A DNA stretch of 64,000 nucleotides from Candidatus Moraniibacteriota bacterium (GTDB lineage: Bacteria > Patescibacteriota > Minisyncoccia > Moranbacterales > UBA1568): assembly GCA_016699875.1 (NCBI GenBank), contig CP064989.1, positions 848,525 to 912,524 of the forward strand. The letters are read 5' to 3'. The notes below the pieces were generated by a model. The model worked only from the letters and a program-made list of their open reading frames with translations. It did no database searches and was not told where the DNA came from. Each line of letters starts with the position of its first letter. Position 1 is the first letter of the stretch. Positions 1,906 through 38,975 of the stretch are shown in pieces. The position numbers and the translations under genes are program-made.

Positions 1906-2064
1906 CACCGATAGCAATGACTTTGTTGTGCTAAAATGTTTGGAATTGCGAGTGTATGCCTGGTCGATGGCAGATACTCTTCTTCCTTCTTTGTCGCATG
2001 CTTGTGCGGCTCTCACAGTGTTTTTGCTTTTTCATTTGGTAATTGCAGTTTTTATTTTTTGCAT

Positions 2065-4347
2065 ATGACAGAATCATCATCTTTATCTCCCGCTTCGAGC
2101 GATTTTACTCCCGGGAGCTCGAGGCGTCCGCGGAATTTTCCGCGAAGGAGATCGTTTGGCGCAAATGATCAAAATAAACAGGGGATTCGTTCGGATCGAT
2201 CCGGCGAAGCGTCAGGCTCTCGAAATCATCATCGGGGAAGTTTTTCCCGCCACAATGTCAGCGGAGGTCGAACAAGTGAGTCCGGAAGGAAACCACTTGA
2301 CTTAGGATCTATCTCATCATTTTTGGCAGAGCCACTTCGCAATATCTCTTTCGAGCGGGATCGGAAATTTGTTGCCGCATCGGATATGGCAACATCGAAC
2401 CAGCTGGGAGCGCGCTTGCAAAGACCGGAGAGATCCCGAGAGAGCCAGCCGATGCCTCATTCAGGGAATCGTCGCACGGATCGCCCGAGAAAATCAATGC
2501 ATGCCAATAGATCGAGATCGGTCAACCGCTCGGCGGAAGCGTCGGATGATACCGTATCAATGTCGAAACAAACCGCACGTAAGTTTGCGGCGTCGCGACG
2601 GGAGCCAAAGCCGTTTCTCTTTGATCGGAACGAGGGCGGGACAGTGCCTCCTATCGGTAAGGGACTGCTTCGTGTTATTCCTGTTGGCGGTCAGGAGGAA
2701 GTCGGTCGAAACATGACGATATTCGAATATGAAAACGATATCGTGATTATCGACATGGGTGTGCAGTGGCCGGAGGCGGACATGCCCGGCATCGACTACA
2801 TCGTGCCGAATATCAGTTATCTCAGGGGGAAGGAAAAAAATATCCGCGGCGTAATTTTTACGCACGGGCACCTCGATCATATCGGCGCGGCGCCTATTCT
2901 TCTCAAAGAATTGAACTACCCGCCGATTATCGGTCGCGATTTGACCATTGCTCTTGTCAAACGAAAAGTGGAGGATCATGAACAGGGTTCCACTTCTCGT
3001 CTCAAGATCGTGCCAGTTCGCTCGCTGGCCGATGTGATACAGCTGGGCGTCTTTCGGGCGAAGTTCTTCGAGGTAGAACATTCTATCATGGATGCGGTGG
3101 GCGTTGTTCTCGAGACGCCGGAGGGATCGATCATTCACATGGGTGACTGGACTATTGGTCGGGACCCGATCAATCCCAAGCCGATTACGTATACGCATCT
3201 TGCCGATCTCCCCAAGCCTACAATACTGATGCTTGAAAGTCTGGGCGCGCTCAAGTCCGGAGATTCGCCGTCGGAGCGGGAAGTGCACCGGAATTTGCAG
3301 CATCTTTTGGAGAGTGCGCCGGGACGCATTATTCTCGCGACGTTTGCTTCACAAGTGCAGCGTATCGCGTATATCATCGAATATGCCGAGCGCATCGGGA
3401 AGAAAGTGGCGCTCGAGGGTTACAGCATGAAGATGAACATGGAAATCGCCAAGGAGCTCGGGTATCTCAAGGCGAAGAAGGAGACTATCATTACCGTGAA
3501 TGATATTCATAAGTATCCGGACAATCAGGTGTTGGTGATTTGCACCGGAGCACAGGGCGAACTTAATGCAGCACTTTCGAAAATTGTCACGGACAACCAC
3601 CGATTTATCAAGCTGCAGAAGAAGGACACGATTGTATTTTCGTCATCGGTGATTCCGGGAAATGAGCGGAGTATACAGCGGCTCAAGGACAATCTCTACC
3701 GAAAGTGCGACAACGTGCTTCATAGCGAGACGCTCGATGCGCAGGGTATTCATCTTGATATTCATATTGGCGGGCATTCGACGGCAAAAGGTATCGAAGA
3801 GATGCTCCGGCAGGTGCGCCCGACATTTTTCTTGCCGGTCTATGCCAATCACTACTTCCTCAAGGAGGCGGCAAAGATTGCGAGTCGAATCGGATTTCCG
3901 GAGAATCGGGTCTTCGTACTTGACAACGGAGGCATTCTCGAAGTGGCGAAAGGCGAAGCAAAAGTGTTTCCAAAGAAGGCGGATTCAAGCTATGTATTCA
4001 TTGATGGGCTCGGCGTCGGCGATATCGGACATGTGGTGTTGCGGGATCGGCAGATGCTCGCTCAGGACGGCATGATCGTTATCACAGTGGTCATCGATTC
4101 GAAGACAAAGAAAATAATAGGTTCGATACAGATTACGTCGCGCGGATTTATTCATGTAAAAGAAAATTTTGATTTGGTGAATGAGACAAAACGAAAGGTG
4201 ACAAAAATTGTGAAAGATTCTACGTCGAAAGACACGTCACTTGATTGGAATCTTGTGAAGAACAATATTCGTGATACCGTTGGACAGTTTCTCTTCATAA
4301 AGACCGAGCGCCGACCGATGGTCTTACCGGTTATTGTCGAGGCATAA
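2065..4347 (+). CDS. rnj: ribonuclease J (metallo-beta-lactamase / beta-CASP) with a long N-terminal R/S-rich low-complexity extension
   Basis: RNase J hallmarks are present: LRVIPVGGQEEVGRNMTIFEYENDIVIIDMG, the HxHxDH motif FTHGHLDHIGA, and a beta-CASP region. The table ORF begins at 1936 but its first 43 aa are Cys/Phe-rich and start only 30 nt after the tRNA. I prefer the internal ATG at 2065 (Met44). The true start may be further downstream, since the canonical RNase J core begins near aa ~240. Confidence 0.8.
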   Translation: MTESSSLSPASSDFTPGSSRRPRNFPRRRSFGANDQNKQGIRSDRSGEASGSRNHHRGSFSRHNVSGGRTSESGRKPLDLGSISSFLAEPLRNISFERDRKFVAASDMATSNQLGARLQRPERSRESQPMPHSGNRRTDRPRKSMHANRSRSVNRSAEASDDTVSMSKQTARKFAASRREPKPFLFDRNEGGTVPPIGKGLLRVIPVGGQEEVGRNMTIFEYENDIVIIDMGVQWPEADMPGIDYIVPNISYLRGKEKNIRGVIFTHGHLDHIGAAPILLKELNYPPIIGRDLTIALVKRKVEDHEQGSTSRLKIVPVRSLADVIQLGVFRAKFFEVEHSIMDAVGVVLETPEGSIIHMGDWTIGRDPINPKPITYTHLADLPKPTILMLESLGALKSGDSPSEREVHRNLQHLLESAPGRIILATFASQVQRIAYIIEYAERIGKKVALEGYSMKMNMEIAKELGYLKAKKETIITVNDIHKYPDNQVLVICTGAQGELNAALSKIVTDNHRFIKLQKKDTIVFSSSVIPGNERSIQRLKDNLYRKCDNVLHSETLDAQGIHLDIHIGGHSTAKGIEEMLRQVRPTFFLPVYANHYFLKEAAKIASRIGFPENRVFVLDNGGILEVAKGEAKVFPKKADSSYVFIDGLGVGDIGHVVLRDRQMLAQDGMIVITVVIDSKTKKIIGSIQITSRGFIHVKENFDLVNETKRKVTKIVKDSTSKDTSLDWNLVKNNIRDTVGQFLFIKTERRPMVLPVIVEA

Positions 4348-14483: not shown

Positions 14484-14858
14484 ATGGGTGCAACGAAAAA
14501 AATTCTTATTATAGAGGATGAGAAACCGTTGTCTCGGGCGTTGGAATTAAAACTGACGCATGTCGGATTTGAGACGAAAACCGCCGTGAACGGCGAAGAA
14601 GGGCTGTCTCTCTTGCAGAAGGAATCGTTCGATCTTGTTCTGACGGATTTGGTTATGCCGAAGGTGGATGGGTTTGCCGTGCTTTCGGCACTGAAGGAGC
14701 GAGGCAATACGACGCCGGTGATTGTATTGACCAATTTAAGCCAAGCGGAAGATGAGTCACGAGCGAGAACTCTTGGCGCATCGGGCTTTTTGGTAAAATC
14801 GGATATCTCTGTCGCTGAAATTGTCGAACGTATAAAGTACGTGTTCGAAGAGGCATGA
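14484..14858 (+). CDS. single-domain response regulator (CheY-like receiver)
   Basis: ILIIEDE..D(L)VLTDLVMPKVDG..VIVLTN.. matches a REC domain, including the conserved Asp and Lys. There is no output domain. It lies directly upstream of pilB. Confidence 0.8.
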   Translation: MGATKKILIIEDEKPLSRALELKLTHVGFETKTAVNGEEGLSLLQKESFDLVLTDLVMPKVDGFAVLSALKERGNTTPVIVLTNLSQAEDESRARTLGASGFLVKSDISVAEIVERIKYVFEEA

Positions 14859-14911: not shown

Positions 14912-16570
14912 ATGGATATCAGTGCGGAGGACATCAAGAGGATTCTTCTCGAGGGGAGTTATGTGGCGCAGGACGATATTCGGAAGACAGAAATAAAAGC
15001 GGAGGCTCGGGGAATTTCTCTGACGAAGCTTCTCTTAGAGGAGGGATTGATGAGCAAGGATCTTTTGGGACAGGCGATTGCCGAATCGCTCGGTGTGTCG
15101 TATTCCGATTTGAATTCCGCATCTGTCTCACCGGAGCAGGTGAGGCGAATTCCCGAAGAGATTGCAAAGAAATATCGCGCGGTTGTTTTTTCCGAAAAAC
15201 AAGACACTGTTACCATTGCAACAGATTCTCCTCGAGAAGAGGTGATGATTTCAGAGATTGCCCCGATTTTTACTGGCAAGAAAATTGTTACAACTTATTC
15301 ACTTCCGGAGGACATCGAGTCACTTTTTATTCATTACAAGAAATCGCTCGAGACGCGCTTCTCAAAGATTCTTGAAGATAATAGCCAGGTTGCTTCGGGA
15401 TTTCTGGAGGAGATATTCGAAGATGCGGTTGAGTTTCGGGCATCGGATATTCATTTTGAGCCGAATGAGAGTAGTGTGGTTATTCGGTTTCGTATCGATG
15501 GCGTCTTGCAAAATGCCGGAACGCTTCCGAAAGAATACTACGATACGCTATTGAATCGAATCAAGGTGAAGAGCGGTTTGCGTATCGACGAGCACTTCTC
15601 GGCACAGGACGGATCGCTACGGTATGGAAAAGGCGATGGAGCGGTTGATATGCGGGTCTCGATTGTCCCGACTGTCGAGGGAGAAAAAGCAGTGTTGAGA
15701 GTGCTCTCTTCCTATATTGAGGGGCTCTCGTTGGCAGATATCGGTCTTTCTTCCGAGAATCAGGAAGTGTTGCAAACGTCTGCCAAGAAGCCGTTCGGCA
15801 TGATCTTGGTCGTGGGACCGACGGGAAGCGGGAAGACAACGACGCTGTATTCATTGCTGAAACTTCTGAATAGCCCCGATGCGAACATTACCACTATCGA
15901 AGATCCGGTCGAATACAAAGTGAGAGGAATAAATCAGATTCAAGTGAATGCGCGAACGAACTTGACATTTGCTCAGGGCTTGCGTTCGATTGTCCGTCAA
16001 GATCCCGATACGATTCTTGTGGGGGAGATACGTGATCGGGAAACAGCGGAAATCGCAGTGAATGCGGCACTCACCGGACATTTGCTTCTCTCAACCTTTC
16101 ACGCGAATGATGCAGCGACAGCACTCCCTCGGCTGGTTGATATGGGCATTGAATCGTTTCTCTTAGCCTCGACGCTTGATATCATCGTAGCGCAACGTTT
16201 GGTACGAAAGATATGTGCGGCATGCCGATCGGGAGTTTCGGCGTCTGTTCTCAGTGGAAAGCTCGGCGCGGTATCTCGGTCTGTTTTGACGACATATTTC
16301 CCTGAGGAGTCGGCCACATTTTATGAAGGAAAGGGATGCGCTCTGTGTAGCGGCACGGGATATAAAGGGCGAACGGCGCTTTTTGAATGCATACGTATCA
16401 CGCCTGCCATGCAGGATCTTATTGTGAAAAAACCGTCGACGCAAGAAATATGGAAGTTGGCAAGAGAGGAAGGTTCACTTTCCTTGTTTGAAGACGGCGT
16501 CCTTAAGGTGAAGAATGGCATTACTACTGCAGAGGAGTTGTTCCGTGTCGCTGAGCCGCCAAATGTATGA
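14912..16570 (+). CDS. pilB: type IV pilus assembly ATPase PilB (GspE family)
   Basis: Walker A is GPTGSGKTTTLYSLL. A GspE N-terminal domain is present. The tetracysteine zinc motif is CAACRS..CALCSGTGYKGR. Asp and His box regions are present. Confidence 0.85.
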   Translation: MDISAEDIKRILLEGSYVAQDDIRKTEIKAEARGISLTKLLLEEGLMSKDLLGQAIAESLGVSYSDLNSASVSPEQVRRIPEEIAKKYRAVVFSEKQDTVTIATDSPREEVMISEIAPIFTGKKIVTTYSLPEDIESLFIHYKKSLETRFSKILEDNSQVASGFLEEIFEDAVEFRASDIHFEPNESSVVIRFRIDGVLQNAGTLPKEYYDTLLNRIKVKSGLRIDEHFSAQDGSLRYGKGDGAVDMRVSIVPTVEGEKAVLRVLSSYIEGLSLADIGLSSENQEVLQTSAKKPFGMILVVGPTGSGKTTTLYSLLKLLNSPDANITTIEDPVEYKVRGINQIQVNARTNLTFAQGLRSIVRQDPDTILVGEIRDRETAEIAVNAALTGHLLLSTFHANDAATALPRLVDMGIESFLLASTLDIIVAQRLVRKICAACRSGVSASVLSGKLGAVSRSVLTTYFPEESATFYEGKGCALCSGTGYKGRTALFECIRITPAMQDLIVKKPSTQEIWKLAREEGSLSLFEDGVLKVKNGITTAEELFRVAEPPNV

Positions 16571-18021
16571 GTAATGCAACATCGGCATCTCATCGCCTAT
16601 TCGCCACGGTTGGATTGGGGAAGGAGTTGGATTATTTGGTTGAGAATTTGAGCATGCTTGTGTCGGCGGGTATGCCTGTTTCGAGCGCGCTTGATGCGAT
16701 CGCCGAAGAAACGCAGTCTCATCGAATGAAACGCGCTATTCTCTCGATGCGCACTGATATCGAGAGCGGATTGACGCTCTGGGCAGCTTTGGAAAGAAGC
16801 GGATTGTTCCGAGAACATGTAGTATCGCTTGTCCGCATCGGCGAAGAATCCGGAAGGCTGGTTGAGAATCTGAAAGTAGTATCGGTTGAAGAAGAAAAAG
16901 ATCGGCTTTTCCGTTCCAAACTTCGATCGGCAATGACGTATCCGATCTTTGTGCTCCTAGTGACAGCGGTTGTCGGTATCGGTATTGCATGGTTTATCTT
17001 GCCGAAACTCGCGTTGGTATTCTCACAGTTAAAGATTGCTCTTCCGTGGATCACCAAAGCACTGATTAGTGTGGGCGTGTTTCTGAATGCGTCCGGCTGG
17101 AAGGTGCTTCCAGCGGGGTCGATCGTGATTGCGGTACTTTTTTATTTCGCATTCTTCTTCCCGAAGACCAAGGTTATCGGACAGTACTTTCTGCTCTTCA
17201 TTCCCGGAGTAAAGCAGTTGATATCGGAGGTTGAAATGGCGCGGTTCGGATTTCTTTTGGGGACGCTTCTTTCCGCGGGAATACCGGTGGTAAAGTCTCT
17301 TGACTCTTTAGTGAGAGCGACTGATTCTGTCCCGTACAGAAAACTTTTTCTGTATCTGCGTAATTCTATTGAAGCGGGAAACTCTTTTCAAAAAAGCTTT
17401 GCTTTGTTGCGTCGCGGAGACCGTCGAATATCTCGGCCTATTCAACAACTCATCGTTGCGGCTGAACGATCCGGAAATCTTCCGGAAACATTCTTGAAGA
17501 TAGGATCGACGTACGAAGGCAAAGCGGATGCGACGACGAAAAATCTCACGGTTATTTTGGAGCCGATCCTATTGGTTCTCGTATGGCTCGGAGTGGTCGG
17601 AGTGGCGCTTGCGGTTATTCTTCCGATCTACAGTCTGGTAGGCGGACTCAACCAGAATGAAGATTCGACAGCGTCTATGCAGTCAACTACCGAACAGCCT
17701 CTCTCGGTCAATTCTTCTCCCGAATCCCCGGAAAGCGGATCGTTGGCCGAACCGCAAGCAATTCCAGAGACCGGTGCTGCATTGTCGGGAGAAACGCCCA
17801 ATGTTCTGCCAGTGATTCGCGTGCAAGAAACGAATGTTGGATACTTGAATGTTCGCGATATCCCTGCGGCGTCGGGTGCGCTGGTGGGGAAGGTGGTTCC
17901 GGGCGATACGCTCTCGTATACGGAAGAACGGGATGGCTGGTTCTCGGTTGTCTTGCCGAATGGAGAGTCCGGCTGGGTGTCCGGAGATTATGTGGAAAGA
18001 GTAACTGAACAATCGCCATGA
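16567..18021 (+). CDS. pilC: type IV pilus inner-membrane platform protein PilC (GspF family) fused to a C-terminal bacterial SH3 (SH3b) domain
   Basis: Two GspF-type repeats with three TM segments are present (..SGNLPETFLKIGSTYEG..). After an S/P/E-rich linker comes an SH3b-like module: VGYLNVRDIPAASGALVGKVVPGDTLSYTEERDGWFSVVLPNGESGWVSGDYVERV. Its start overlaps the pilB stop by 4 nt. Confidence 0.8.
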   Translation: MSNATSASHRLFATVGLGKELDYLVENLSMLVSAGMPVSSALDAIAEETQSHRMKRAILSMRTDIESGLTLWAALERSGLFREHVVSLVRIGEESGRLVENLKVVSVEEEKDRLFRSKLRSAMTYPIFVLLVTAVVGIGIAWFILPKLALVFSQLKIALPWITKALISVGVFLNASGWKVLPAGSIVIAVLFYFAFFFPKTKVIGQYFLLFIPGVKQLISEVEMARFGFLLGTLLSAGIPVVKSLDSLVRATDSVPYRKLFLYLRNSIEAGNSFQKSFALLRRGDRRISRPIQQLIVAAERSGNLPETFLKIGSTYEGKADATTKNLTVILEPILLVLVWLGVVGVALAVILPIYSLVGGLNQNEDSTASMQSTTEQPLSVNSSPESPESGSLAEPQAIPETGAALSGETPNVLPVIRVQETNVGYLNVRDIPAASGALVGKVVPGDTLSYTEERDGWFSVVLPNGESGWVSGDYVERVTEQSP

Positions 18022-18458
18022 GATCGTCGGCCCATGCTTTCACTCTGCTTGAAGTCATGCTCTCACTTGCGGCTATGGCGGCGATTGCGGGTATTTCCGT
18101 GCCGATCTATCAATCGTTTCAAGTAAGAAATGATTTGGATATTGCGGCAACGACTATAGCGGAGAGTTATCGTCGTGCTACGGTGCTCGCGCAGGCATCG
18201 GACGGCGATGCTAGTTGGGGAGTGCGCATTCAATCGGGAGGCGTCACCCTTTTTAAGGGGGCGAGCTATGCGGCTCGGGACGCTTCGTTCGATGAGTTTT
18301 TTCCCGTTCCGACAGGCATTGTTCCGTCAGGGATGTCCGAGGCAATTTTCGCGAAGTTTACCGGCATGCCAATGGCGACCGGCACCGTAACACTCACCTC
18401 TTCCGCCAATGAAACACGAACCATCACAATCAATACCAAGGGCATGGTTGATTACTGA
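18018..18458 (+). CDS. prepilin-type minor pilin (GspH/FimT-like)
   Basis: The class III signal is MRSSAHA|FTLLEVMLSLAAMAAIAG, with conserved Glu5 and Ala at position -1. It overlaps the pilC stop. Confidence 0.6.
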   Translation: MRSSAHAFTLLEVMLSLAAMAAIAGISVPIYQSFQVRNDLDIAATTIAESYRRATVLAQASDGDASWGVRIQSGGVTLFKGASYAARDASFDEFFPVPTGIVPSGMSEAIFAKFTGMPMATGTVTLTSSANETRTITINTKGMVDY

Positions 18459-19038
18459 GAAATTCCGCGGATTTTCGCTTGTGGAAGTGCTTCTTTCGGG
18501 CGCAGTTTTCTCGCTCCTGGTGACAGCCTTGGTGGGGGTGTATCTCTATGGCGAAGAGTCGACCGCTCTCGCGGGGAATCGAGCGCGAGCAGTCTTTTTT
18601 GCGGAAGAAGGGCTTGAAGCGGTGCGGAATATTCGTGATGCGAACTTTACTAATCTTTCTAATGGCACATACGGACTTGCAGTATCCGGAGGACAATGGA
18701 ATTTCTCTGGCTCTTCCGATACAAACGGTATTTTCACGCGAGAAGTTGTCATTAGTTCGGCGGGTATGAACCGGAAGGATGTCGAAGTAACGGTTTCTTG
18801 GCAGCAAAATGCCAGTCGGATCGGTCAGGTATCTCTTACCTCGCGTTTTACCCATTGGCAGGAGGGTTCTGCTGCCTCGTCTTCGTGTACGGAATTTGTT
18901 ATTCCGCTTGGCTATAGCCAGGGAACGTGTCGGCAGAATACGGTTCAGTGCGGTCACAATGGCGAGACACATGAGGCAGGCGGAGATGTTCTTTGCATAG
19001 GAGGACCGTCGGCGGATACCTGCTGCGCGCTTCCGTGA
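18409..19038 (+). CDS. prepilin-type minor pilin (PilV/GspI-like) with Cys-rich C-terminus
   Basis: The ..EKFRG|FSLVEVLLSGAVFSLLV prepilin motif is present. The table ATG at 18409 gives a 21-aa leader. A TTG 12 codons downstream would give a typical short basic leader. The C-terminus has 7 Cys. Confidence 0.55.
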   Translation: MKHEPSQSIPRAWLITEKFRGFSLVEVLLSGAVFSLLVTALVGVYLYGEESTALAGNRARAVFFAEEGLEAVRNIRDANFTNLSNGTYGLAVSGGQWNFSGSSDTNGIFTREVVISSAGMNRKDVEVTVSWQQNASRIGQVSLTSRFTHWQEGSAASSSCTEFVIPLGYSQGTCRQNTVQCGHNGETHEAGGDVLCIGGPSADTCCALP

Positions 19039-19043
19039 ATCCT

Positions 19044-19559
19044 ATGAAACAAAATGAATATAGACAATCCGGGTTTACACTGATCGAGCTGCTTCTCTAT
19101 GTTGGGATCGCTTCGTTATTGCTTTTTGCTGCATCGATCATCTTGTCAATATTGCTCGAATCGCGCATCAAGAATCAGACAATAGCTGAAGTTGAGGGGC
19201 AGGGCGCGGCAGTGTTACACATTCTTGGGCAATCGGTCCGAAATGCGAGTGGCATAAATTCGCCATCTCCCGGTTCAAGTGCTTCAATGCTCTCGCTTGC
19301 TGTTGATAATTCGGGAAATAATCCGACGGTGTTTAATATTGAGTTAGGCGCGCTTCGTGTGAAAGAGGGTTCATCCGGAGCGATCAATCTCACAAATAGT
19401 CGCGTTGTCGTGTCAAACTTATCGGTAGCTAATCTTTCTCGTTCGGGTACGCTGGGAACGGTTCGGATTGAGTTTACTGTGGCGGCAAAAAACACTTCCG
19501 GACGCAATGCCTATTCTTTTTCGAAAACATTTGCAACTTCGGCTACGCTGCGACAATAG
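19044..19559 (+). CDS. prepilin-type minor pilin (PilW/GspJ-like)
   Basis: Internal Met MKQNEYRQSG|FTLIELLLYVGIASLLLFAA carries the canonical G-FTLIE motif. The table ORF begins at TTG 18993. Confidence 0.55.
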   Translation: MKQNEYRQSGFTLIELLLYVGIASLLLFAASIILSILLESRIKNQTIAEVEGQGAAVLHILGQSVRNASGINSPSPGSSASMLSLAVDNSGNNPTVFNIELGALRVKEGSSGAINLTNSRVVVSNLSVANLSRSGTLGTVRIEFTVAAKNTSGRNAYSFSKTFATSATLRQ

Positions 19560-19605
19560 TCAACGCTGGTCGGTTTGGGACTCAAACAGTATTTTCGTTG
19601 ATGCT

Positions 19606-20007
19606 ATGTTGAATCGCAAGAAACAATCCGGGTATATCACGCTTCTCAGTATCTTGGTTGTCGGAGCGGTCGGGGTCTCGATATCCGTATCGCTCCTCTT
19701 GCTTGGGCTGGGGAATTCACGGACCGGACTCTCTCTGCAGCAAATGTACCAAGCGAAAGCGCTCGCGGATGCTTGTGCGGAAGAGGCTCTTATTGAGGTG
19801 CAGAGCTCTGTTTCGTTTGCCGGGAGCGGCTCTTTGGCAATCGGACGGGGAACCTGTTCGTACTCGGTAACGAATCAGGGCGGGCAAAATAGGACGGTGA
19901 CAGCTGTGGGCACAATCGGCACAATTGTTCGGAAAACAGAAGTTATTTTGAGTAAGATTACTCCAAATATCGCTGTGATATCTTGGCAAGAGGTAAGGGA
20001 TTTGTAA
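19606..20007 (+). CDS. PilX-like pilus-associated protein / atypical minor pilin
   Basis: MLNRKKQSGYITLLSILVVGAVGVSISVSLLLLGL is a hydrophobic PilX-like N-terminal segment lacking Glu5. It is Met47 of table ORF 19468..20007. Confidence 0.45.
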   Translation: MLNRKKQSGYITLLSILVVGAVGVSISVSLLLLGLGNSRTGLSLQQMYQAKALADACAEEALIEVQSSVSFAGSGSLAIGRGTCSYSVTNQGGQNRTVTAVGTIGTIVRKTEVILSKITPNIAVISWQEVRDL

Positions 20008-20053: not shown

Positions 20054-20518
20054 ATGCGTGACATTCGAAGAGGGTGTATTCAAAATGAGAGGCAGCGAGG
20101 ATTTACCTTGCTTGAAATACTTTTGGTTGTAGCGGCAATCGGCATTCTTGCCGGCATCGTTATTCTCGCAATAAATCCGACCAAGCAGCTCGGGGACACT
20201 CGGAATGCCCAGCGCCGTTCCGATGTGAATACGATTCTGAATGCGGTTTATCAATATGCCATCGACAACAATGGCACTCTGCCAGCATCTATCACTACCA
20301 CCGCAACGCCTGTTTGCAAGACGGGCGGAACCTGTACAAGTCTTATCGATTTGAGCGCGCTTACGACGAATGAGAAATACCTCGTTTCTCTGCCATACGA
20401 TCCGATCGGTTCGACGACGAATAGCACCGGGTACAATATTAGCAAGTCTGCGAATGGGCGAGTGACAGTTTCAGCTCCAAGTGCCGAACAGAGCGTGACG
20501 ATCAGTGTCACGAGATGA
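20054..20518 (+). CDS. type IV pilin (major pilin candidate, paralog 1)
   Basis: ..QRG|FTLLEILLVVAAIGILAGIVILAINPTKQLGDTRNAQRRSDVNTILNAVYQY.. is a canonical type IVa pilin N-terminal helix. The C-terminal domain is Cys-containing and Thr/Ser-rich. Confidence 0.75.
   Translation: MRDIRRGCIQNERQRGFTLLEILLVVAAIGILAGIVILAINPTKQLGDTRNAQRRSDVNTILNAVYQYAIDNNGTLPASITTTATPVCKTGGTCTSLIDLSALTTNEKYLVSLPYDPIGSTTNSTGYNISKSANGRVTVSAPSAEQSVTISVTR
20105..20284 (+). repeat. direct repeat copy 1 (conserved pilin N-terminal coding block, ~180 nt)
   Basis: Near-identical nucleotide stretch (..attctcgcaataaatccgaccaagcagctcgg..actcggaatgcccagcg..) shared with 20697..20876, roughly 85-90% identity by eye. Confidence 0.7.
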
Positions 20519-20678: not shown

Positions 20679-21137
20679 ATGAAAAACACAAAGGCGTTTA
20701 CGCTTATAGAGATCTTGCTGGTTGTTGCGGCGATTGCTATTCTTGCTGGCATTGTTATTCTCGCAATAAATCCGACCAAGCAGCTCGGCGATACTCGGAA
20801 TGCCCAGCGTCATGCTGATGTGACGACGATTCTCAATGCTGTCTATCAGTATGCGCTTGATAATAATGGTACTTTGCCGACGATTCCTTCGAGTTCGACC
20901 TGTGACAACACCGCTTCCCACCAGATTTGCAAAGCAGGTTCTACAGGGACATGTTCGACCGGCGTTGATATTTCTGTCATTACGGACAACCAGAAATATG
21001 TGACGAGCATACCGATTGATCCGTCGGTTTCTTCGGCGGACGGAACAGGATACTATATTGTTCGAAGTTCGAACAATCGGGTGACGGTCTGTGCGCCGAA
21101 TGCCGAACAGGGGGTTGCGATTAGTGTGACTCGGTAG
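20679..21137 (+). CDS. type IV pilin (major pilin candidate, paralog 2)
   Basis: MKNTKA|FTLIEILLVVAAIAILAGIVILAINPTKQLGDTRNAQRHADVTTILNAVYQY.. has an N-terminal helix near-identical to paralog 1. The C-terminal domain is divergent with 5 Cys. Confidence 0.75.
   Translation: MKNTKAFTLIEILLVVAAIAILAGIVILAINPTKQLGDTRNAQRHADVTTILNAVYQYALDNNGTLPTIPSSSTCDNTASHQICKAGSTGTCSTGVDISVITDNQKYVTSIPIDPSVSSADGTGYYIVRSSNNRVTVCAPNAEQGVAISVTR
20697..20876 (+). repeat. direct repeat copy 2 (conserved pilin N-terminal coding block)
   Basis: See copy 1. The repeat separation is about 590 nt. Confidence 0.7.
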
Positions 21138-21154: not shown

Positions 21155-21736
21155 ATGAATATACGAAGCCAGCTGTTCGCAAGTTATCTTGCGCTCGTTC
21201 TCTTGGGTGCCGGGACGTGGCTCTTTCTTATTGTAGAAGTGAAGACTCTCGCTCGTACGCACGAGGAATATGAGAGGATGGAATTGAACTCGTTTTCGGA
21301 TACGACGCTCTCCAAGCATGTCGGCGAGTCACAGATATTTGACGAATCGCTGAAACGAGTGCTTGATATCGTTGCGGTAAGCGTTGTGACATGGTCGATA
21401 CTGTCAGTCGTCGTCATCTGGAGAGTGTCGTCTCGGTTTACGAAGCCGATTCTTGAGTTGAAACTGGGAATGCAAAGGGTTTCCCAGGGAGAATCTTCAG
21501 TGCGTACCACCATATCGTCACGTGATGAATTCGGAGAACTTTCGGAAGCATTTAATCGCATGGCGGAGGAACTCGAGGGAGATAGGGAAAACATAGAGAA
21601 GAAAGTGGCAAGTCGGACAGCGGAACTTGAACGGATGAACCGGATCATGATGGATCGCGAGTCTAAGATGATCGAATTGAAAGAGAAGATACGGGAACTT
21701 GAGCAACACTATGGGAATATACGCGGCAACGATTGA
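21155..21736 (+). CDS. membrane HAMP-domain protein (2 TM + HAMP + coiled coil, no recognisable output domain)
   Basis: TM1 is LALVLLGAGTWLFLIV and TM2 is IVAVSVVTWSILSVVVIW. A HAMP-like segment follows (RFTKPILELKLGMQRV..RDEFGELSEAFNRMAEELE). The C-terminus is a charged coiled coil. Confidence 0.6.
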   Translation: MNIRSQLFASYLALVLLGAGTWLFLIVEVKTLARTHEEYERMELNSFSDTTLSKHVGESQIFDESLKRVLDIVAVSVVTWSILSVVVIWRVSSRFTKPILELKLGMQRVSQGESSVRTTISSRDEFGELSEAFNRMAEELEGDRENIEKKVASRTAELERMNRIMMDRESKMIELKEKIRELEQHYGNIRGND

Positions 21737-22397
21737 GGGCATTGCGACAAGAGCGTTGAATACGACGGAAGTGACATTTGGCATATCGGAACCGTTCAAA
21801 TTTACGGCCGGGCAGTATGTTACTGTGACGTTGCCAACACTCTATCATCTCGCAGAACGGGAACAGTATCGAGAATTCTCTCTTATTTCTCCGCCAGAAG
21901 ACGCATCTCGGCTTTCCATCGTGTTTCGAAACTCCGGAAGTCATTTTAAGCAGGAAATTTTACGAGGAAGAGATATTGGTCGGAATATAAAAGTCTCTCT
22001 TGAAGGGCCAAAGGGGGTGTTTACGTTGTCTCAGGATCTGAGTATGCCAATCGTTTTTCTTGCCGGAGGCATCGGCATCGCGCCCTTTCTTAGCATGATG
22101 CGGCATCTCTCAAACTTGAAAATTTCGGCTGACATCACACTTTTTTACTGTAATCGCAATCGCGAAAGTGCCACGTATCTGGATGAAATTATGAGCTATG
22201 AATTTGTTCGTTGCATCCCTGTGTTCGGCGACTTGTCTCTCACATTGATTGAGTCTCATGCGAAAGAGTATTCGAAGGACGGATTATGGTATGTATCGGG
22301 TCCTCGGGGGATGGTGAGGACAGCTCGTGAGATTCTCACGGCGCTTTCCGTTGAAGACAGATATATAAGATCAGAAGAATTTTCCGGGTATGAGTGA
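21699..22397 (+). CDS. FAD/NAD(P)-binding oxidoreductase, ferredoxin-NADP reductase-like fold
   Basis: An RxYS-type FAD motif (YREFSLIS) and an NAD-binding GGIGIAPF motif are present. The protein is ~230 aa. An internal Met at 21711 is the likely start. Confidence 0.6.
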   Translation: MSNTMGIYAATIEGIATRALNTTEVTFGISEPFKFTAGQYVTVTLPTLYHLAEREQYREFSLISPPEDASRLSIVFRNSGSHFKQEILRGRDIGRNIKVSLEGPKGVFTLSQDLSMPIVFLAGGIGIAPFLSMMRHLSNLKISADITLFYCNRNRESATYLDEIMSYEFVRCIPVFGDLSLTLIESHAKEYSKDGLWYVSGPRGMVRTAREILTALSVEDRYIRSEEFSGYE

Positions 22398-24018
22398 TGA
22401 TTTCCAACTGGCGCAAGAAAACAAGCTTCCAATTGAAGATTGCAGAGCGTTACTGACGGCGGTGAGTCAGGCAGCGCTTGTTTCCGTGACGGATTCTCGC
22501 GGCTCTATAATTTATGCAAACGACACTTTTGTAAAAGTCTCGAAGTATTCCTACGAAGAGCTTATCGGACAGAATCACCGGATCTTGAAATCAGGCGATC
22601 AACCGGATGTGATGTTTGAAGAACTGTGGAGAACGATTTCTTCCGGAAAAGTATGGCGAGGAGAGATTAAGAACAGGGCGAAGGACGGATCATACTATTG
22701 GGTTGATACTTCAATCGCTCCGATACTCGATGCTTCCGGGGTTCCGGAGCGGTATATTGCCGTTCGTTTTCTCATTACGGAGAAGAAGAATTCTGAGGAG
22801 GGAATCATGCAACAGAACGAGGAACTGGAAAAGACTAAGCGCATCATGCTCAACGTGCTCGAAGACGTGCAGGAGGAACGAAGTCGTGCGGAATCGCTTG
22901 CTTCCGATTTGGAGAAATTCAAGGTCGCACTCGACGGGACATCCGATCATGTTGTTATCACCGATCCGAATGGTGTTGCCTTATATGCAAATGCCGGATT
23001 GAAACGGATCACGGGGTTTAGTCCGAAGGAAGTTCTCGGGAAAAAGGTAGGGACGAAAGAGTTGTGGGGCGGGAATATGAATCAGGAATTTTATGAGAAT
23101 CTTTGGCGTGTTATCAAGATTGAAAAAAAACCTTTTGTCGGAGAAATTACTAACACGCGAAAAGATGGGACGCCATACCAGGCACTTTCAAGCATTTCAC
23201 CTATTGTGAACAAGCATGGCACTTTGGAATTTTTTGTCGGTATAGAGCGCGATATCACCAAGGAGAAAGAAATCGATAATGCAAAGACGGAATTTGTGTC
23301 GCTGGCGTCGCACCAACTTCGAACGCCGCTTTCCGCTATCAACTGGTATACGGAAATGCTCTTGTCGGAGGATGCGGGATCGATATCGGATATACAGCGA
23401 GAGTACCTTGAGGAGGTAAGTCACGGAAGTCGGCGTATGGTGGAATTGGTGAATGCTCTGCTCAATGTCTCGAGGATAGAGTTGGGCACATTTGCCATTC
23501 AGCCGGAGCCGACGGATGTTGTAGAGCTGGCGCGTGATGTGCTCAATGAGCTCAAACCGAAGATCTCGGAGAAACAGCTGCATATAAAGGAACAATTTGC
23601 AGAAGATCTTCCAAAAATGCTGATCGATCCGAAACTCACTAGAATTGTCTTTCAGAATCTTCTGACAAATGCGGTGAAATACACGCCGGAACAGGGGAAT
23701 GTCTCGATGTCGATTGCTATGAGTCAAGAAAAGACAAAATTCAGTATTTCTGTTTCAGACACGGGATATGGAATTCCCAAAGAAGATCAGTCTCGCATAT
23801 TTACCAAGTTGTTCCGGGCGTCGAATATCCGAGAGAAGGAAACGGATGGAACGGGATTGGGTCTTTATATCGTCAAGTCCATCATTGAACATTCTGGCGG
23901 AACGGTGACATTTGAGTCGGAAGAGGAAAAGGGAACGACGTTTACGATCGAACTTCCCGTTTCAGGTATGCGTTCGCAGGAGGGAAGTAAGCAAATCGAA
24001 TGGAAAGAAGAGCTTTGA
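22390..24018 (+). CDS. PAS/PAC-domain sensor histidine kinase
   Basis: Two PAS-like regions are present (..IIYANDTFVKVSKYSYEELIGQNHRIL.. and ..VALYANAGLKRITGFSPKEVLGKKV..). The H-box is SHQLRTPLSAINWYTE. The N box and G boxes are present (DTGYGIPKED, GTGLGLYIVKSIIEHSGG). Confidence 0.85.
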   Translation: MSDDFQLAQENKLPIEDCRALLTAVSQAALVSVTDSRGSIIYANDTFVKVSKYSYEELIGQNHRILKSGDQPDVMFEELWRTISSGKVWRGEIKNRAKDGSYYWVDTSIAPILDASGVPERYIAVRFLITEKKNSEEGIMQQNEELEKTKRIMLNVLEDVQEERSRAESLASDLEKFKVALDGTSDHVVITDPNGVALYANAGLKRITGFSPKEVLGKKVGTKELWGGNMNQEFYENLWRVIKIEKKPFVGEITNTRKDGTPYQALSSISPIVNKHGTLEFFVGIERDITKEKEIDNAKTEFVSLASHQLRTPLSAINWYTEMLLSEDAGSISDIQREYLEEVSHGSRRMVELVNALLNVSRIELGTFAIQPEPTDVVELARDVLNELKPKISEKQLHIKEQFAEDLPKMLIDPKLTRIVFQNLLTNAVKYTPEQGNVSMSIAMSQEKTKFSISVSDTGYGIPKEDQSRIFTKLFRASNIREKETDGTGLGLYIVKSIIEHSGGTVTFESEEEKGTTFTIELPVSGMRSQEGSKQIEWKEEL

Positions 24019-24043: not shown

Positions 24044-24424
24044 ATGGATTCGATGAAGAAAAAAATTTTGATTGTTGAGGATGACACCTCGCTGCGGAAT
24101 GCGCTTTCGGAGAAACTTTCTTATGAGGGATTCTCCGCGTTTGAAGCGGAGAATGGCATTGTCGGTTTTGAAGTTGCGCTTCGAGAACGTCCGGATCTTA
24201 TCTTGCTCGATGTGATTATGCCGAAAATGGACGGTCTTACGATGCTCTCAAAGTTGAGAGAAGACTCGTGGGGAAAGAATGCGCAAGTTATCATGCTGAC
24301 CAATGTGAGCGACGGTGAAAGCGTATTGAAGTCCTTGAATCAGGCGGCATTTGACTATCTCATAAAATCGGACTGGAAGCTGGAAGACATTGTGCGAAAG
24401 ATCCGTGACCGACTTGAGAAATAG
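24044..24424 (+). CDS. single-domain response regulator (CheY-like receiver)
   Basis: KILIVEDD..DLILLDVIMPKMDG..VIMLTN.. is a REC domain. It lies immediately downstream of the histidine kinase. Confidence 0.8.
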   Translation: MDSMKKKILIVEDDTSLRNALSEKLSYEGFSAFEAENGIVGFEVALRERPDLILLDVIMPKMDGLTMLSKLREDSWGKNAQVIMLTNVSDGESVLKSLNQAAFDYLIKSDWKLEDIVRKIRDRLEK

Positions 24425-24436
24425 GGAGGGCAACCT

Positions 24437-25753
24437 GTGTGTCGGCTTGAAGGATGCCAACTTTTCGGCTATACTGCGCGCATGGATACTGAAATCTTCC
24501 GTATTGAAGGAGGGACGAAGCTCTCGGGCGAAATCGAGGTGCGCGGATCAAAAAACGCCGCAGCGCCTATCATTGCTGCGACGCTTCTCACAAAAGAACC
24601 ATGCATTATCCGTAATGTCCCTCGCATCGAGGATGTGTTTCGGTTACTTGAGATACTCGAAAGTATGGGATCGAAGATTGATTGGATCGGCGATCGAACG
24701 GTGCGTATCGAAAACGCCGATATCCATCCAGATCGAATGAATGTCGAGCTGGTAAAGAAGATTCGGTTTTCGATTCTTCTCTTAGGTTCGCTTTCAGCGC
24801 GTTTTGATTCGTTTTCACTGGCACATCCGGGCGGGTGCGCGATAGGTTCAAGGCCGGTTGATGCGCACTTTGATGCGCTGCGGAAACTTGGCGTTGAATC
24901 TCATTCCAAAGAGAAGTTTTATGTTGTTTCCGCTGCCGATCGTCATCCTGCGAGTGTTGTCATGAAAGAATTCTTCTCGGTGACAGCAACCGAAATCGCG
25001 CTTATGCTTGCGGCATCGCTTCCTGGAACGACGACGCTTAAAATTTCCGCCGCAGAGCCCCACGTTGAAGATCTCGGACGTTTTCTTATCTCCATGGGGG
25101 CGAATATTGAGGGATTGGGGACGCACACTATTTCTGTTGAGGGTGGCGCACTTTGTGGAACGGAACATACGATTATTCCCGATCCGATTGAAGCGGCGAC
25201 ATTTCTGGTGCTGGGTGCGGCAACGAAAAGCGATATTACTGTTTGTCACGCGCGACGAGACCATCTCGATATTGTACTTGAGAAGTTGCGGGAATTCGGT
25301 GTGGGATTCGAGTATTCCGACGATACTGTCCGCATTATTCCAACGAATGCTCTTCGGAGTCCGGGCAAAGTAAAGACGGAAATATATCCCGGTATTCCAA
25401 CGGATACGCAGTCACTTTTCGGTGTTCTTTCGTCGCTTGCCGATGGCGAGACGCTGATTCATGATCATATTTATGAAAGTCGATTTAACTATCTTGCGGA
25501 GCTTGAGAAGATGCGGGTAATGTCCGTCATTTTGAATCCGCATCAGGCGGTGATTCATGGTCCGGCTCATTTGCGCGGTACGACAATCAAGAGTTTCGAT
25601 CTTCGAGCCGGAGCGGCGCTTATTATTGCGGCGCTTGCTGCCGAAGGCACGACGACAATCGAAGATATTTACCAGGTCGATCGCGGCTACGAGCGAATTG
25701 AAGAGCGGTTGCAGAAAATCGGAGCGAAGATAGAACGGGTGAATAAGGAATGA
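24437..25753 (+). CDS. murA: UDP-N-acetylglucosamine 1-carboxyvinyltransferase
   Basis: MDTEIFRIEGGTKLSGEIEVRGSKNAA.. aligns with the MurA N-terminus. The active-site Cys lies in LAHPGGCAIGSRPVD. The GTG at 24437 has a GGGAGGG SD 6 nt upstream. An in-frame ATG at 24482 gives the canonical MDTEIF start. Confidence 0.9.
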   Translation: MCRLEGCQLFGYTARMDTEIFRIEGGTKLSGEIEVRGSKNAAAPIIAATLLTKEPCIIRNVPRIEDVFRLLEILESMGSKIDWIGDRTVRIENADIHPDRMNVELVKKIRFSILLLGSLSARFDSFSLAHPGGCAIGSRPVDAHFDALRKLGVESHSKEKFYVVSAADRHPASVVMKEFFSVTATEIALMLAASLPGTTTLKISAAEPHVEDLGRFLISMGANIEGLGTHTISVEGGALCGTEHTIIPDPIEAATFLVLGAATKSDITVCHARRDHLDIVLEKLREFGVGFEYSDDTVRIIPTNALRSPGKVKTEIYPGIPTDTQSLFGVLSSLADGETLIHDHIYESRFNYLAELEKMRVMSVILNPHQAVIHGPAHLRGTTIKSFDLRAGAALIIAALAAEGTTTIEDIYQVDRGYERIEERLQKIGAKIERVNKE

Positions 25754-25779
25754 TGGGCGGGAAGAGCACCGAATTCAAA

Positions 25780-25866
25780 ATTTCAAGTTCCAAATAAATT
25801 TCAAATTCCAAACAGGAGTTCCTGGTTCTCTCTTCGATGTTTTGGTGTTTATTTGGAACTTGGAAT
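25780..25866. repeat. large imperfect inverted repeat in murA-mreB spacer
   Basis: The left arm is ttcaagttccaaataaa and the right arm is tttatttggaacttgga, about 50 nt apart. Further ttccaaa/tttggaa sub-repeats are present. Coordinates are approximate. Confidence 0.4.
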
Positions 25867-25888
25867 TTGATTTTTGGAATTTTTACAC

Positions 25889-26896
25889 ATGTTTGTCAAA
25901 AAGATCGGTATTGATTTGGGGACGGCGAATACGCTGGTCTTTGTTCCCGGGCGGGGGATCGTAGTGAACGAGCCCTCGGTAGTTGCCGTATCTATCGGTG
26001 AGAACAAGGTGCTTGCCGTCGGCAATGAAGCCAAGGAGATGCTTGGTCGGACACCTGACACTATCGTTGCGTCGCAACCGCTTCGGGATGGCGCCATTGC
26101 CGACTATCGTATCACCGAGGCGATGCTTCGATATTTTATCGGGCTTGTGTCCGGGCGACTGCGCTTTTTCCGTCCGGAAGTCGTGCTCTCTATTCCGGCG
26201 GGCGTGACCTCGACAGAGCGCCGTGCCGTAGTGGATGCGGCGATCAAAGCGGGCGCTAAGTCCGCCTATGTCGTCAAGGAACCGATACTCGCGGCGATCG
26301 GAGCGGGCATCCCGATTCACACGGCGCAGGGGAATATGATTATCAATATCGGCGGCGGCACGTCTGAAATCGCGATTATCTCGCTTGGAGGAATTGTTGC
26401 GGCGCACTCGGCGCGCGTCGGCGGAAATCGTATTGATCAGGCGATATCGGACTATATCAAGCGCAAGTACAGTATGGCGATCGGCGAGCGCACTGCGGAG
26501 GAGGTAAAGAAGACGATCGGATCGGCGATTGCCTTAGTCAAAGAAGAATACTTTGATCTGCGCGGGCGCGATCTCATGGGTGGACTCCCGAAGACGCTCA
26601 CGGTGTCATCGAATGAAATCACCGAGGCGATACAGGACGAGCTTCGTGAAATTATAAACGTCATCAAACATGTGCTCCAGGAAACGCCACCCGAACTCGC
26701 CGCGGATATCATGGACAAGGGCATGATACTCTCGGGCGGCACGGCCCAACTCAAAAATCTGGATCAGCTGATAGCGCGCACGATCGGCGTGCCCTGTTTC
26801 GTTGCTGATGATGCGGCGTTTTGTGTTGCCAAGGGAACCGGCATCGTGCTTGAAAATCTCGACATCTACAAGCGAAGCATCATGATTGGTAAGTAG
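25889..26896 (+). CDS. mreB: rod shape-determining protein MreB (actin homolog)
   Basis: MFVKKIGIDLGTANTLVFVPGRGIVVNEPSVVAV.. and the ..IGGGTSEIAIISLGGIV.. and ..LSGGTAQLKNLDQLI.. motifs are present. ATG 25889 is chosen over the table TTG at 25874. Confidence 0.9.
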   Translation: MFVKKIGIDLGTANTLVFVPGRGIVVNEPSVVAVSIGENKVLAVGNEAKEMLGRTPDTIVASQPLRDGAIADYRITEAMLRYFIGLVSGRLRFFRPEVVLSIPAGVTSTERRAVVDAAIKAGAKSAYVVKEPILAAIGAGIPIHTAQGNMIINIGGGTSEIAIISLGGIVAAHSARVGGNRIDQAISDYIKRKYSMAIGERTAEEVKKTIGSAIALVKEEYFDLRGRDLMGGLPKTLTVSSNEITEAIQDELREIINVIKHVLQETPPELAADIMDKGMILSGGTAQLKNLDQLIARTIGVPCFVADDAAFCVAKGTGIVLENLDIYKRSIMIGK

Positions 26897-38600: not shown

Positions 38601-38975
38601 AAGAATATCGGTTCGGTAGTAAAGGAAAGGCTGACATTCCTTCCGCTTTCCGAAACACAGAAAGATCTTATAGAGAACATCTTTAGTGCGAGAATTCCGA
38701 CGGCGGGCACTGAGCCGACAACGAGTTCCGTGTTGTTTGTAAGAGATGCTCTTGGAAAAGCTCTTTTCTCGTCGGGTGATGTGGAACGCTGGATGCAAGC
38801 TGATATCGAACAAGTGCGAGAGAGGGTGAATAAGGCAATCTATGCCGGCATTGTTCGTATTGGTGGCGAGTCGCTACGCATTGGAAAAATGGTCGCGGAG
38901 GGTGAGACGGTAGAGGGTTGGCTGACAAAAATGGCGCGACATATCCTTACACATCCGATTGAACCTGCGAAATAA
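35673..38975 (+). CDS. large hypothetical membrane protein (1100 aa): acidic or disordered N-terminal half, two Gly/Ala-rich TM segments, P/S-rich C-terminal region
   Basis: It is a long uninterrupted ORF. TM-like glycine-zipper segments are AISALVIGAGATGVAVGSVGLIGLGAASGVAV and VWAGVAAGALLFAGGTALSLAHAA. No enzymatic motif was recognised. Confidence 0.6.
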   Translation: MKAEVVSLDSSEATLSPGERVFNLLPETVQGKLSGRYNREEIARRVLRELGEGKRDDRSLHNGVVSAIYLDKDIPSSIKKGLLRHLGSIVPAQENETLKFFKKVNKNLENQQVRKGDVRQQNSTSADTHRHDDDAIDREVRAVGADMHPDHSEKLEQKKYIARERASKKSKQAKVASVPGESHDSRKPSNLEGNVQGDASVSEDLPDDQKVSPPNEGYFGSLDYIEAIDDQSLDASVAQQEGIDWEGVKKDFDEEGKRIQEERARSVKFNRLDVQETFDQGMEQLKNRDKLAERFRDVKSFDELLVLLNDPEFPGIQGSKQFYSGDDLKRIIAIARETGATKFVTRSHGFLDMAERLLREEKEGKIGALKEDNIVEGFGVVNRTAPGVFERVPDALNELHIEKENDLSRAVESLEELQERVDRLKNDADAARNLLFSCRRKNGDRWKEVKKFFAFPKEKEAPKPVIEEWEMLEVAWKYRLTLYKDARVELAKRQVAEGGLQGRDVGAVMAETIRELDFRGRVENYNAWKDAAWSGKKDSWLLRAVGRAKDWGESYRKLDWKKRAAISALVIGAGATGVAVGSVGLIGLGAASGVAVRLLGSYAAGRGLYEYLEGRANKDTVKFQEAALSHVEQSGDIGFLDHRTRDYADRIRKDFEQMTRKNRKRVWAGVAAGALLFAGGTALSLAHAASAAERVVDGGSGKQVVQDALTARGAEIPEISKNVPVVPSVVEASVPASDTSGLMPDSVGSGVVDHGISVEAAGDIGKSFENMEIAAVPKGGSFEKVLIEKLTGVGIPKEEAGKLAHRAMLDLAEKSGKSFEIFNHIQPGAEIQYEIGPDKSLSVFGVTREAGGRVIQRMAGSALEGSHASPDVQVLEEVLSPPLQPTDAVSVPSVQTPPLSSFPKMPEVNLESPPDIFDRVLPEVPQIPPLEDTLSGNVPLDTSVSAHPLESISTNIPAPAHDFESLDLSVPGGEYLKNIGSVVKERLTFLPLSETQKDLIENIFSARIPTAGTEPTTSSVLFVRDALGKALFSSGDVERWMQADIEQVRERVNKAIYAGIVRIGGESLRIGKMVAEGETVEGWLTKMARHILTHPIEPAK

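Follow-up and report, generated by a model that had tools for sequence, protein, structure and literature searches.

Why should the platform protein of a type IV pilus end in a domain of the kind that peptidoglycan hydrolases use? The question is raised by a stretch of 64,000 nucleotides (hereafter the window) from contig CP064989.1 of Candidatus Moraniibacteriota bacterium (assembly GCA_016699875.1, positions 848,525 to 912,524 of the forward strand), a member of CPR, the candidate phyla radiation (Patescibacteria). In this window, the open reading frame (ORF) 16567-18021 on the plus strand encodes a protein of 484 residues, here called PilC-SH3b. An earlier note, made from the sequence alone, had described it as a PilC platform protein which continues through a linker rich in Ser, Pro and Glu into a bacterial SH3 domain of the cell-wall-binding kind. 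We find that both halves are what the note took them to be, that the fusion is common in CPR, and that the tail can be placed outside the cytoplasmic membrane, where it probably tethers the base of the pilus to the cell wall.

A platform core and an SH3b tail

The core of PilC-SH3b (residues 1-363; 16567..17655) carries two stretches matching the Pfam family T2SSF (PF00482; E 1.5e-49 and 167.6 bits for the whole ORF, against a cut-off of 25.2). A profile search of the PDB matched it to the PilC of 3jc8 (1.5e-37), and in Foldseek comparisons with the PDB its Cyto1 domain superposes on the crystal structures of EpsF, OutF and PilC with root mean square deviations (rmsd) of 1.2-1.7 Å. The two T2SSF stretches and the operon context thus confirm membership of the PilC/GspF family. 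The best NCBIfam matches of the core, to GspF (181 bits for a cut-off of 424), HofC, PilC (149 for 700) and ComGB (107 for 240), all fall below their equivalog cut-offs. Assignment to the GspF of type II secretion systems, to the PilC of type IVa pili or to ComGB is therefore impossible, and the protein is a divergent CPR lineage of the family.

A hydropathy scan gave three strong segments, corresponding to the three transmembrane helices predicted for the core. TM1 (residues ~123-146; 16933..17004) has a Kyte-Doolittle maximum of 2.8 and does not contain a single charged residue across 64 homologues, the set over which all values of conservation, composition and charge are given below. TM2 (residues ~181-201; 17107..17169) reaches a maximum of 2.3. 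TM3 (residues ~328-358; 17548..17640), with a maximum of 3.1 and a mean column identity of 0.89, is the most conserved segment of the protein, and the tail begins from its outer end. In this predicted organization PilC-SH3b resembles the known GspF, PilC and ComGB platforms (PulF of Klebsiella, PilC of Myxococcus and Thermus, ComGB of Streptococcus), which likewise have two T2SSF repeats, three transmembrane helices and a conserved TM1/TM3 core, and whose genes lie next to, and are translationally coupled with, that of a PilB-type ATPase followed by pilin genes. However, PulF and ComGB, as presented in reviews, end a few residues after TM3, whereas PilC-SH3b adds about 120 residues, predicted to be extracytoplasmic.

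The first part of this addition is the linker (residues ~364-411; 17656..17799), which is acidic and rich in Glu, Pro, Ser and Thr. The region equivalent to residues 363-412 contains on average 14% E, 13% P, 12% S and 12% T, in agreement with the composition described in the earlier note. A full-length AlphaFold2 model, computed from a 64-sequence alignment of SH3-bearing homologues, has a mean predicted local distance difference test score (pLDDT) of 83. The helical folded core lies mostly between 81 and 96, and residues 367-411 fall below 50, as expected of a disordered segment. The length of the linker, ~48 residues here, ranges from 18 to 78 with a median of 40, and its mean column identity is 0.31, compared with 0.58 for the SH3 domain. 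The SH3 domain is thus under constraint and the linker is not.

Elsewhere in the window, two PMT_2 (GT-C, protein-mannosyltransferase-like) membrane glycosyltransferases adjoin each other on the minus strand (31912-33879 and 33941-35626), and many GT4/GT2 genes and a MurJ/Wzx-type flippase are also found. That PMT_2-type enzymes could glycosylate Ser/Thr-rich extracytoplasmic linkers, for example that of the PilC tail, is pure speculation.

The segment 17809-18021, which translates as PVIRVQETNVGYLNVRDIPAASGALVGKVVPGDTLSYTEERDGWFSVVLPNGESGWVSGDYVERVTEQSP*, represents in frame the last 70 codons and the stop of the ORF. The Pfam search which the earlier note had proposed as a check was positive: SH3_3 (PF08239) matches residues 426-477 with 43.2 bits in the whole ORF and with 48 bits (E 1.4e-12) when the 70-residue tail is scanned alone, for a gathering score of 27. 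This lies well above what chance would produce. NCBIfam added weaker matches of the tail, below threshold, to EntFM/CwpFM (their SH3 repeats) and to the EntA-D wall-binding proteins. In the full-length model, residues ~412-480 (17800..18006) form a beta domain with a pLDDT of ~95. Folded alone by AlphaFold2 from an alignment of 36 sequences, the tail forms seven strands with a pLDDT of 92.

Comparison of the tail with the PDB by Foldseek ranked bacterial SH3b domains first (probability 1.00, TMq 0.73-0.86, rmsd 1.3-2.1 Å), followed by eukaryotic SH3 domains with worse superpositions. The top match is 4krt, the two SH3_3 wall-binding domains of the endolysin Psm of Clostridium perfringens phage phiSM101 (TMq 0.78-0.79, rmsd 1.4-1.6 Å). 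Further matches include 2krs (the SH3 domain of C. perfringens CPF_0587), 9a7d (an integrative model of the Bacillus subtilis amidase YrvJ) and 4r0k (dipeptidyl-peptidase VI of Bacteroides). A sequence profile of the tail retrieved the same set from the PDB, with 4krt at 4.9e-16. The solved relatives found by profile and fold are mostly SH3b modules of peptidoglycan hydrolases, including NlpC/P60 enzymes, and of wall-associated surface proteins. The description of the tail as a typical bacterial SH3 domain of the wall-binding kind therefore stands, since it is a canonical SH3_3 domain with its nearest solved relatives among hydrolase modules. It shares with the modules of 4krt, 2krs, YrvJ and dipeptidyl-peptidase VI the profile, the fold and the LNVR...GW...GWV...Y signature. 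It differs in its setting: those modules are carried by secreted hydrolases, whereas PilC-SH3b has only one copy, joined to a motor component that is a polytopic membrane protein, in the company of no catalytic domain.

The conserved signature of the domain, L-R-I-L-x-T-x-x-G-Y-L-N-V-R ... G-W-Y ... G-W-V-x-G-x-Y, in which W458, G469 and W470 are invariant among SH3-bearing homologues, is the ordinary SH3_3 consensus with one extra N-terminal strand. Because this conserved strand ('LRIL.T', residues ~416-419) belongs to the domain, we place the start of the SH3b slightly upstream of the Pfam envelope. Two homologues (P0016 and P0080) carry insertions of 12-17 residues in the same loop, between the 'GWYEI' and 'GWV' strands. 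This loop therefore tolerates insertions, and it probably points away from the functional surface. A search of a library of representatives with the SH3b profile matched 23,337 representative clusters, the top 150 being mostly proteins with 4-18 tandem SH3_3 repeats. On this evidence the SH3b of PilC is mainstream SH3_3, and the search is uninformative as to a PilC-specific subtype. A Pfam scan of PilC-SH3b at E values up to 1 detected no LysM, AMIN, OmpA-like or PG_binding_1 domain. It returned only T2SSF, SH3 families and a sub-threshold match to DUF2207_C (E 0.91, 9.6 bits for a cut-off of 33).

Distribution and history of the fusion

To collect relatives of PilC-SH3b, each GTDB species was represented by one genome and scanned with a pattern. 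This gave 247 relatives, and the locus counts given here refer to the best 80 by full-length score. Core and SH3b domain are joined in one ORF in 44 of these 80 loci, a share (55%) which is biased upwards because ranking by full-length score favours SH3 carriers. The record titles of the SH3-plus loci include Moraniibacteriota, Uhrbacteria, Magasanikbacteria, Buchananbacteria, Jacksonbacteria and Doudnabacteria, as well as Dojkabacteria, Gracilibacteria, Altimarinota, Nomurabacteria and Paceibacterota. A search of 5.8 billion proteins lists among its matches proteins with both PF00482 and PF08239, from 80% down to ~45-46% identity, under names that include Moraniibacteriota, Wildermuthbacteria, Uhrbacteria, Kaiserbacteria, Paceibacterota and 'Patescibacteria group'. 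The survey of homologues that had been suggested for this protein thus finds the fusion conserved in dozens of relatives. It had also been called unusual, which is correct in comparison with the PilC and GspF of model organisms but not within Patescibacteria.

Database entries for PilC-SH3b read 'type II secretion system F family protein', an annotation that hides the SH3b domain. Our literature search yielded no publication in which a platform protein is said to bear an SH3b or other wall-type domain, and a study of the Saccharibacteria pilus (PMC11623550) does not mention a PilC-SH3 fusion. The fusion is common in CPR and, as far as our searches show, undescribed.

Some records would extend the fusion beyond CPR. 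Two of them, named 'Acidimicrobiales' (L022, JBLIMJ010000001.1; 39% G+C) and 'Cyanobacteria UBA9579' (L049, DNSU01000027.1; 33% G+C), were considered as evidence of occurrence outside CPR and set aside as mislabelled or mis-binned. Others, named 'Bdellovibrionales', 'Gammaproteobacteria' or 'Pseudomonadales' (L001, L007, L019 and L051-L054), have a CPR-type PilC, with SH3b in all but L054. For each of the records checked (L022, L049, L001, L007, L019 and L051), the nearest PilC relatives are from CPR. The carriers with non-CPR names look like mis-binned contigs or the product of unreliable automatic naming.

In the SH3-less homologues (354-397 residues) the chain ends 8-12 residues past ILPIY, a conserved motif of TM3. 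SH3-plus and SH3-less loci share equally the gene clusters described below for the response regulator, PilB and pseudopilins. In none of the best 80 loci does a free-standing SH3 gene adjoin an SH3-less PilC gene, and a search of the SH3-less loci for a compensating gene yielded only one specific cluster, a DUF1761 protein present in 11 loci, devoid of a wall-binding signature and probably no more than the marker of a clade.

When mapped on a neighbour-joining tree built from the core, the SH3 character changes at least 13 times, and the state at the midpoint root is 'present'. In three SH3-less proteins (P0061, P0078 and P0103; locus L081, 2474-3640) the chain continues for 20-30 residues into the linker before it ends. 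The retained stretch (GGFNGGAGNETQTAPVVE...) is near-identical to the start of the linker of the SH3-bearing P0010. The three are clean truncations, snapshots of domain loss by deletion. The possibility that P0061 results from a frameshift artefact was ruled out by the presence of the same truncated allele in two independent samples and by the overlap of the next gene on its contig with the stop. Distances between SH3b domains correlate with those between cores (Pearson r 0.56; none of 999 permutations gave a value as high), and the nearest neighbour is the same in 45% of cases. We favour, and hold loosely in view of the biased sample and the simple tree, a scenario in which the SH3b domain was acquired early, would have been inherited with the core and was repeatedly lost.

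Orientation and possible ligand of the tail

The T2SSF domains must both be cytoplasmic in order to meet PilB, and with three transmembrane helices this places the C-terminus outside. The distribution of charges conforms to the positive-inside pattern expected for such an N-in, C-out protein: the mean net charge is +4.7 for the N-terminal domain and +3.5 for the second large domain, against -5.3 for the linker, where the density of Lys and Arg is 0.04, and -3.8 for the SH3 domain. The topology of the GspF/PilC family has been determined experimentally and agrees with DeepTMHMM (reviewed in PMC10191384). In the trimer model of PulF, TMS1 and TMS3 build a central six-helix bundle, and TMS3 lines the central channel (PMC10790770). 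The PDB (to April 2026) contains no experimental structure of a full-length platform, only the architectural model 3jc8 and cytoplasmic domains, so that the topology is founded on the literature and on the charge bias. The hydropathy profile with its three segments, the bias in charge and the topology published for the family together lead us to infer that the tail of PilC-SH3b is extracytoplasmic. The topology check advised in the earlier note would thus place the tail outside and not in the cytoplasm.

PilC-SH3b is the platform protein of a Com-like machine or a type IV pilus, and we propose that it holds on to the wall. The N-terminus and both T2SSF domains would lie in the cytoplasm and dock the PilB ATPase. 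Past TM3, the chain would leave the membrane outwards, continue as a flexible acidic linker of ~48 residues and end in the folded SH3b, which would bind the peptidoglycan of the cell itself or a wall polymer linked to that peptidoglycan. Once bound, the SH3b would fix the base of the pilus in an envelope that has neither an outer membrane nor a secretin, and in the service of an operon that lacks the usual wall-binding pilus accessories. We assign to this tether a probability of roughly 0.55. The wall ligand and the anchoring role are drawn solely from what SH3_3 domains do elsewhere.

Several considerations lead to the tether. The way in which pilus machines of single-membrane cells are anchored to the wall, or pass through it, is an open question on which there is only speculation about PilO (PMC6916266), so that a wall attachment would fill a recognized gap. 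The usual role of the SH3_3 family points in the same direction, as do the nearest relatives of the domain, for the most part modules from wall hydrolases and from surface proteins associated with the wall. The tail is placed outside, and the length of the flexible linker suits a domain which has to reach a layer several nanometres above the membrane. There is no outer-membrane secretin complex, nor any of the wall-binding accessories known from double-membrane systems. The fusion is conserved in many CPR lineages, with a higher identity in the SH3 domain than in the linker and with co-varying SH3 and core distances. Finally, murA and mreB (24437..26896, plus strand) lie 6-9 kb downstream of PilC-SH3b, with 460 bits for murA (TIGR01072, cut-off 393) and 432-447 bits for MreB, above both cut-offs. 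Their presence indicates that the organism makes a peptidoglycan wall, and peptidoglycan is the presumed ligand of the SH3b.

Double-membrane pilus and secretion machines use accessories with LysM, AMIN or PG_binding domains to fix a trans-envelope machine to the wall. PilC-SH3b would resemble these accessories only in the role proposed for it and has no homology to them. They are separate proteins or domains of secretins and form part of an outer-membrane system, whereas here the candidate binder is fused to the inner-membrane platform itself. The proteins of TIGR04211 ('SH3 and anchor', YgiM type) also combine a single SH3b with a membrane anchor, outside the cytoplasmic membrane. However, PilC-SH3b scores 24.8 against their cut-off of 65, and in TIGR04211 the SH3 comes first, is followed by one C-terminal anchor and is accompanied by no platform domain.

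A closer likeness in layout is offered by the flagellar stators of the MotB/PomB type, in which a membrane segment on the ion path is followed by a flexible linker and an extracytoplasmic wall-binding domain, OmpA-like in MotB. PilC-SH3b would share this layout, though it has no sequence or fold relationship to MotB or PomB; an ion path through PilC is only a proposal, made for PulF (PMC10790770), and the anchoring is conjectural. In current models, the PilB hexamer turns the platform in steps of 60 degrees, and rotation of the platform under the ATPase is debated (PMC10191384). If the SH3b binds the wall, three flexible tethers per trimer would restrict the turning of the platform. One could go further and suppose that in much of Patescibacteria a wall-held PilC is a fixed, stator-like element of the motor and not a freely rotating spindle, a suggestion which we consider rather improbable. 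If true, a wall-tethered PilC made of channel, linker and wall binder would contradict continuous rotation of the platform or show that rotation is unneeded. SH3-plus and SH3-minus orthologues in otherwise identical operons represent natural pairs for comparison in this respect. More generally, PilC-SH3b is a concrete candidate for the wall anchor of single-membrane type IV filament machines, and one conserved across a large, mostly uncultured branch of bacteria that relies on pili for host contact and possibly for DNA uptake.

Several observations weigh against a wall tether. SH3_3 is a broad family (the 23,337 representative clusters mentioned above) whose ligands vary. Of the orthologues sampled in the best 80 loci, about 45% have no SH3 yet occupy the same operon, so that the domain is dispensable for the basic machine. 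The TM1-TM2 loop, which the proposed orientation puts outside, is mildly positive (+2). Lastly, since the published trimer model has TMS3 lining the central channel, the tails would stand beside the nascent pilus, where a pilin or the pilus itself would fit equally well as a ligand.

This last point leads to the main rival, a serious one, according to which the extracytoplasmic SH3b binds a protein of the pilus machine and not the wall, and forms an alignment or gating collar around the nascent filament. As partners one may think of a PilN/PilO-like protein, of the basal part of the pilus shaft or of pilins and minor pilins, through their globular heads. With TMS1 and TMS3 in the central bundle of the PulF trimer model, three tails would indeed emerge at the base of the pilus, and an extra extracytoplasmic module could substitute for PilM/N/O, which are found neither in the operon nor within ±6 kb of the 80 related loci. 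The invariant aromatic residues W458, W470 and Y475 would suit a peptide-binding groove. However, both sequence and fold bring the domain closest to modules from wall hydrolases and not to protein adaptors. The SH3b is conserved although the pilins encoded in these loci diverge strongly, and an interface co-evolving with them would be expected to vary more. We therefore regard a collar as unlikely, although it is the alternative to be taken most seriously.

The SH3b could instead be a sensor, and not an anchor, which binds wall fragments or surface glycopolymers of its own or of the host cell and modulates the platform, possibly in concert with the products of the neighbouring response regulator and histidine kinase genes. 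A receiver-only response regulator does lie directly upstream of PilB in 73 of the 80 loci, genes for a HAMP protein, a PAS histidine kinase and a second receiver follow just downstream, and CPR pili mediate host contact (PMC11623550). A linker of 48 residues is unlikely, however, to extend past the cell's own envelope, and we have no evidence of signalling through PilC. To our knowledge, regulation of a platform protein by an SH3b domain has no precedent, and we consider a sensory role very improbable.

An inverted or four-segment topology would bring the SH3 into the cytoplasm, there to bind, for example, a proline-rich partner or PilB. The weakly hydrophobic, amphipathic stretch of residues 155-175 could in principle serve as a fourth membrane segment, and the slightly positive TM1-TM2 loop would agree with it, but the T2SSF domains have to be cytoplasmic for PilB and three transmembrane helices then leave the C-terminus outside. 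Moreover, the tail is strongly acidic and poor in Lys and Arg, and SH3_3 domains are typical of exported proteins. This topology is effectively excluded. So, with a chance that is close to nil, is an assembly or gene-calling artefact joining PilC to a separate SH3 gene, since the ORF is continuous with no stop or change of frame, the databases contain an identical protein, encoded on a 1.09-Mb contig from a metagenome-assembled genome of Candidatus Moraniibacteriota, the same single-ORF architecture recurs in 44 independent genomes and dozens of metagenomic proteins, and SH3-less PilC genes have no free-standing SH3 gene beside them.

The pilus operon and other features of the window

The operon to which PilC-SH3b (16567-18021; T2SSF twice, SH3_3) belongs lies on the plus strand and begins with the gene of the receiver-only response regulator (14484..14858; Pfam Response_reg, 1.3e-24). 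It is followed by the PilB/GspE-type extension ATPase (14912..16570; T2SSE at 2.1e-118, MshEN), which scores 476 bits with NCBIfam PilB, below the equivalog cut-off. The stop of PilB overlaps the start of PilC in an ATGA, and so does the stop of PilC with the start of the first pseudopilin gene; these overlaps at both ends of PilC indicate that PilB, PilC and the pseudopilin are translationally coupled. PilB upstream and six pilin-like genes downstream of PilC-SH3b is an order kept in ~78 of the 80 related loci, and in 73 of the 80 a homologue of the response regulator is found ~2 kb upstream of PilC. The pilus operon thus looks hard-wired to two-component signalling across CPR. No PilM/N/O, PilT or PilD was recognized among the scanned ORFs of the 64-kb window.

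The first four of the six pilin-like genes are overlapping pseudopilin or minor-pilin-like genes (18018-18458, 18409-19038, 18993-19559 and 19468-20007). Three of them match N_methyl, two of these below the Pfam cut-off. The fourth, ORF 19468-20007 (plus strand, 179 residues), overlaps the preceding pseudopilin gene and matches neither N_methyl nor any other profile. Its N-terminus is hydrophobic and pilin-like (KQSGYITLLSILVVGAVGV...), and the protein may represent a minor pilin that has diverged and carries a cleavage motif of non-canonical form. The remaining two, 20054-20518 (154 residues) and 20679-21137 (152 residues), are tandem pilin paralogues with N_methyl matches of 7.2e-07 and 2.5e-05 and, for the prepilin cleavage/methylation domain TIGR02532, a score above its cut-off. 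The ~60 residues after their prepilin motif are near-identical, their globular parts are divergent, and both terminate in '...ISVTR'. These features suggest a tandem duplication, which would have given two alternative or co-assembled major pilins. Downstream, Pfam identified a HAMP protein (21155-21736), a histidine kinase with two PAS domains (22390-24018) and the second receiver (24044-24424), followed by murA and mreB.

Elsewhere in the window, two large ATPases on the plus strand (40430-42931 and 59417-61501) show weak matches to TrwB/VirD4 coupling proteins and to HerA/DUF87, the second also to a treble-clef zinc finger. Near them lie large ORFs that do not match Pfam at E 1e-5 or better (35673-38975, of 1100 residues; 39347-39916; 39940-40401; 50772-52772, minus strand; and 58071-59369). 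The two ATPases and their neighbours may form a DNA-translocation or conjugation-like module. In the RNase J homologue encoded by 1936-4347 (plus strand, 803 residues), the metallo-beta-lactamase domain starts near residue 257, after a long N-terminal extension with no profile match. As a tRNA occupies 1822-1905, this gene may have been annotated with a start that lies too far upstream. Each 4-kb block of the window (1-64000) shows a positive GC skew (0.11-0.25), stretches of minus-strand genes included. The absence of a switch in sign indicates that the window belongs in its entirety to a single replichore and that its strand bias is strong.

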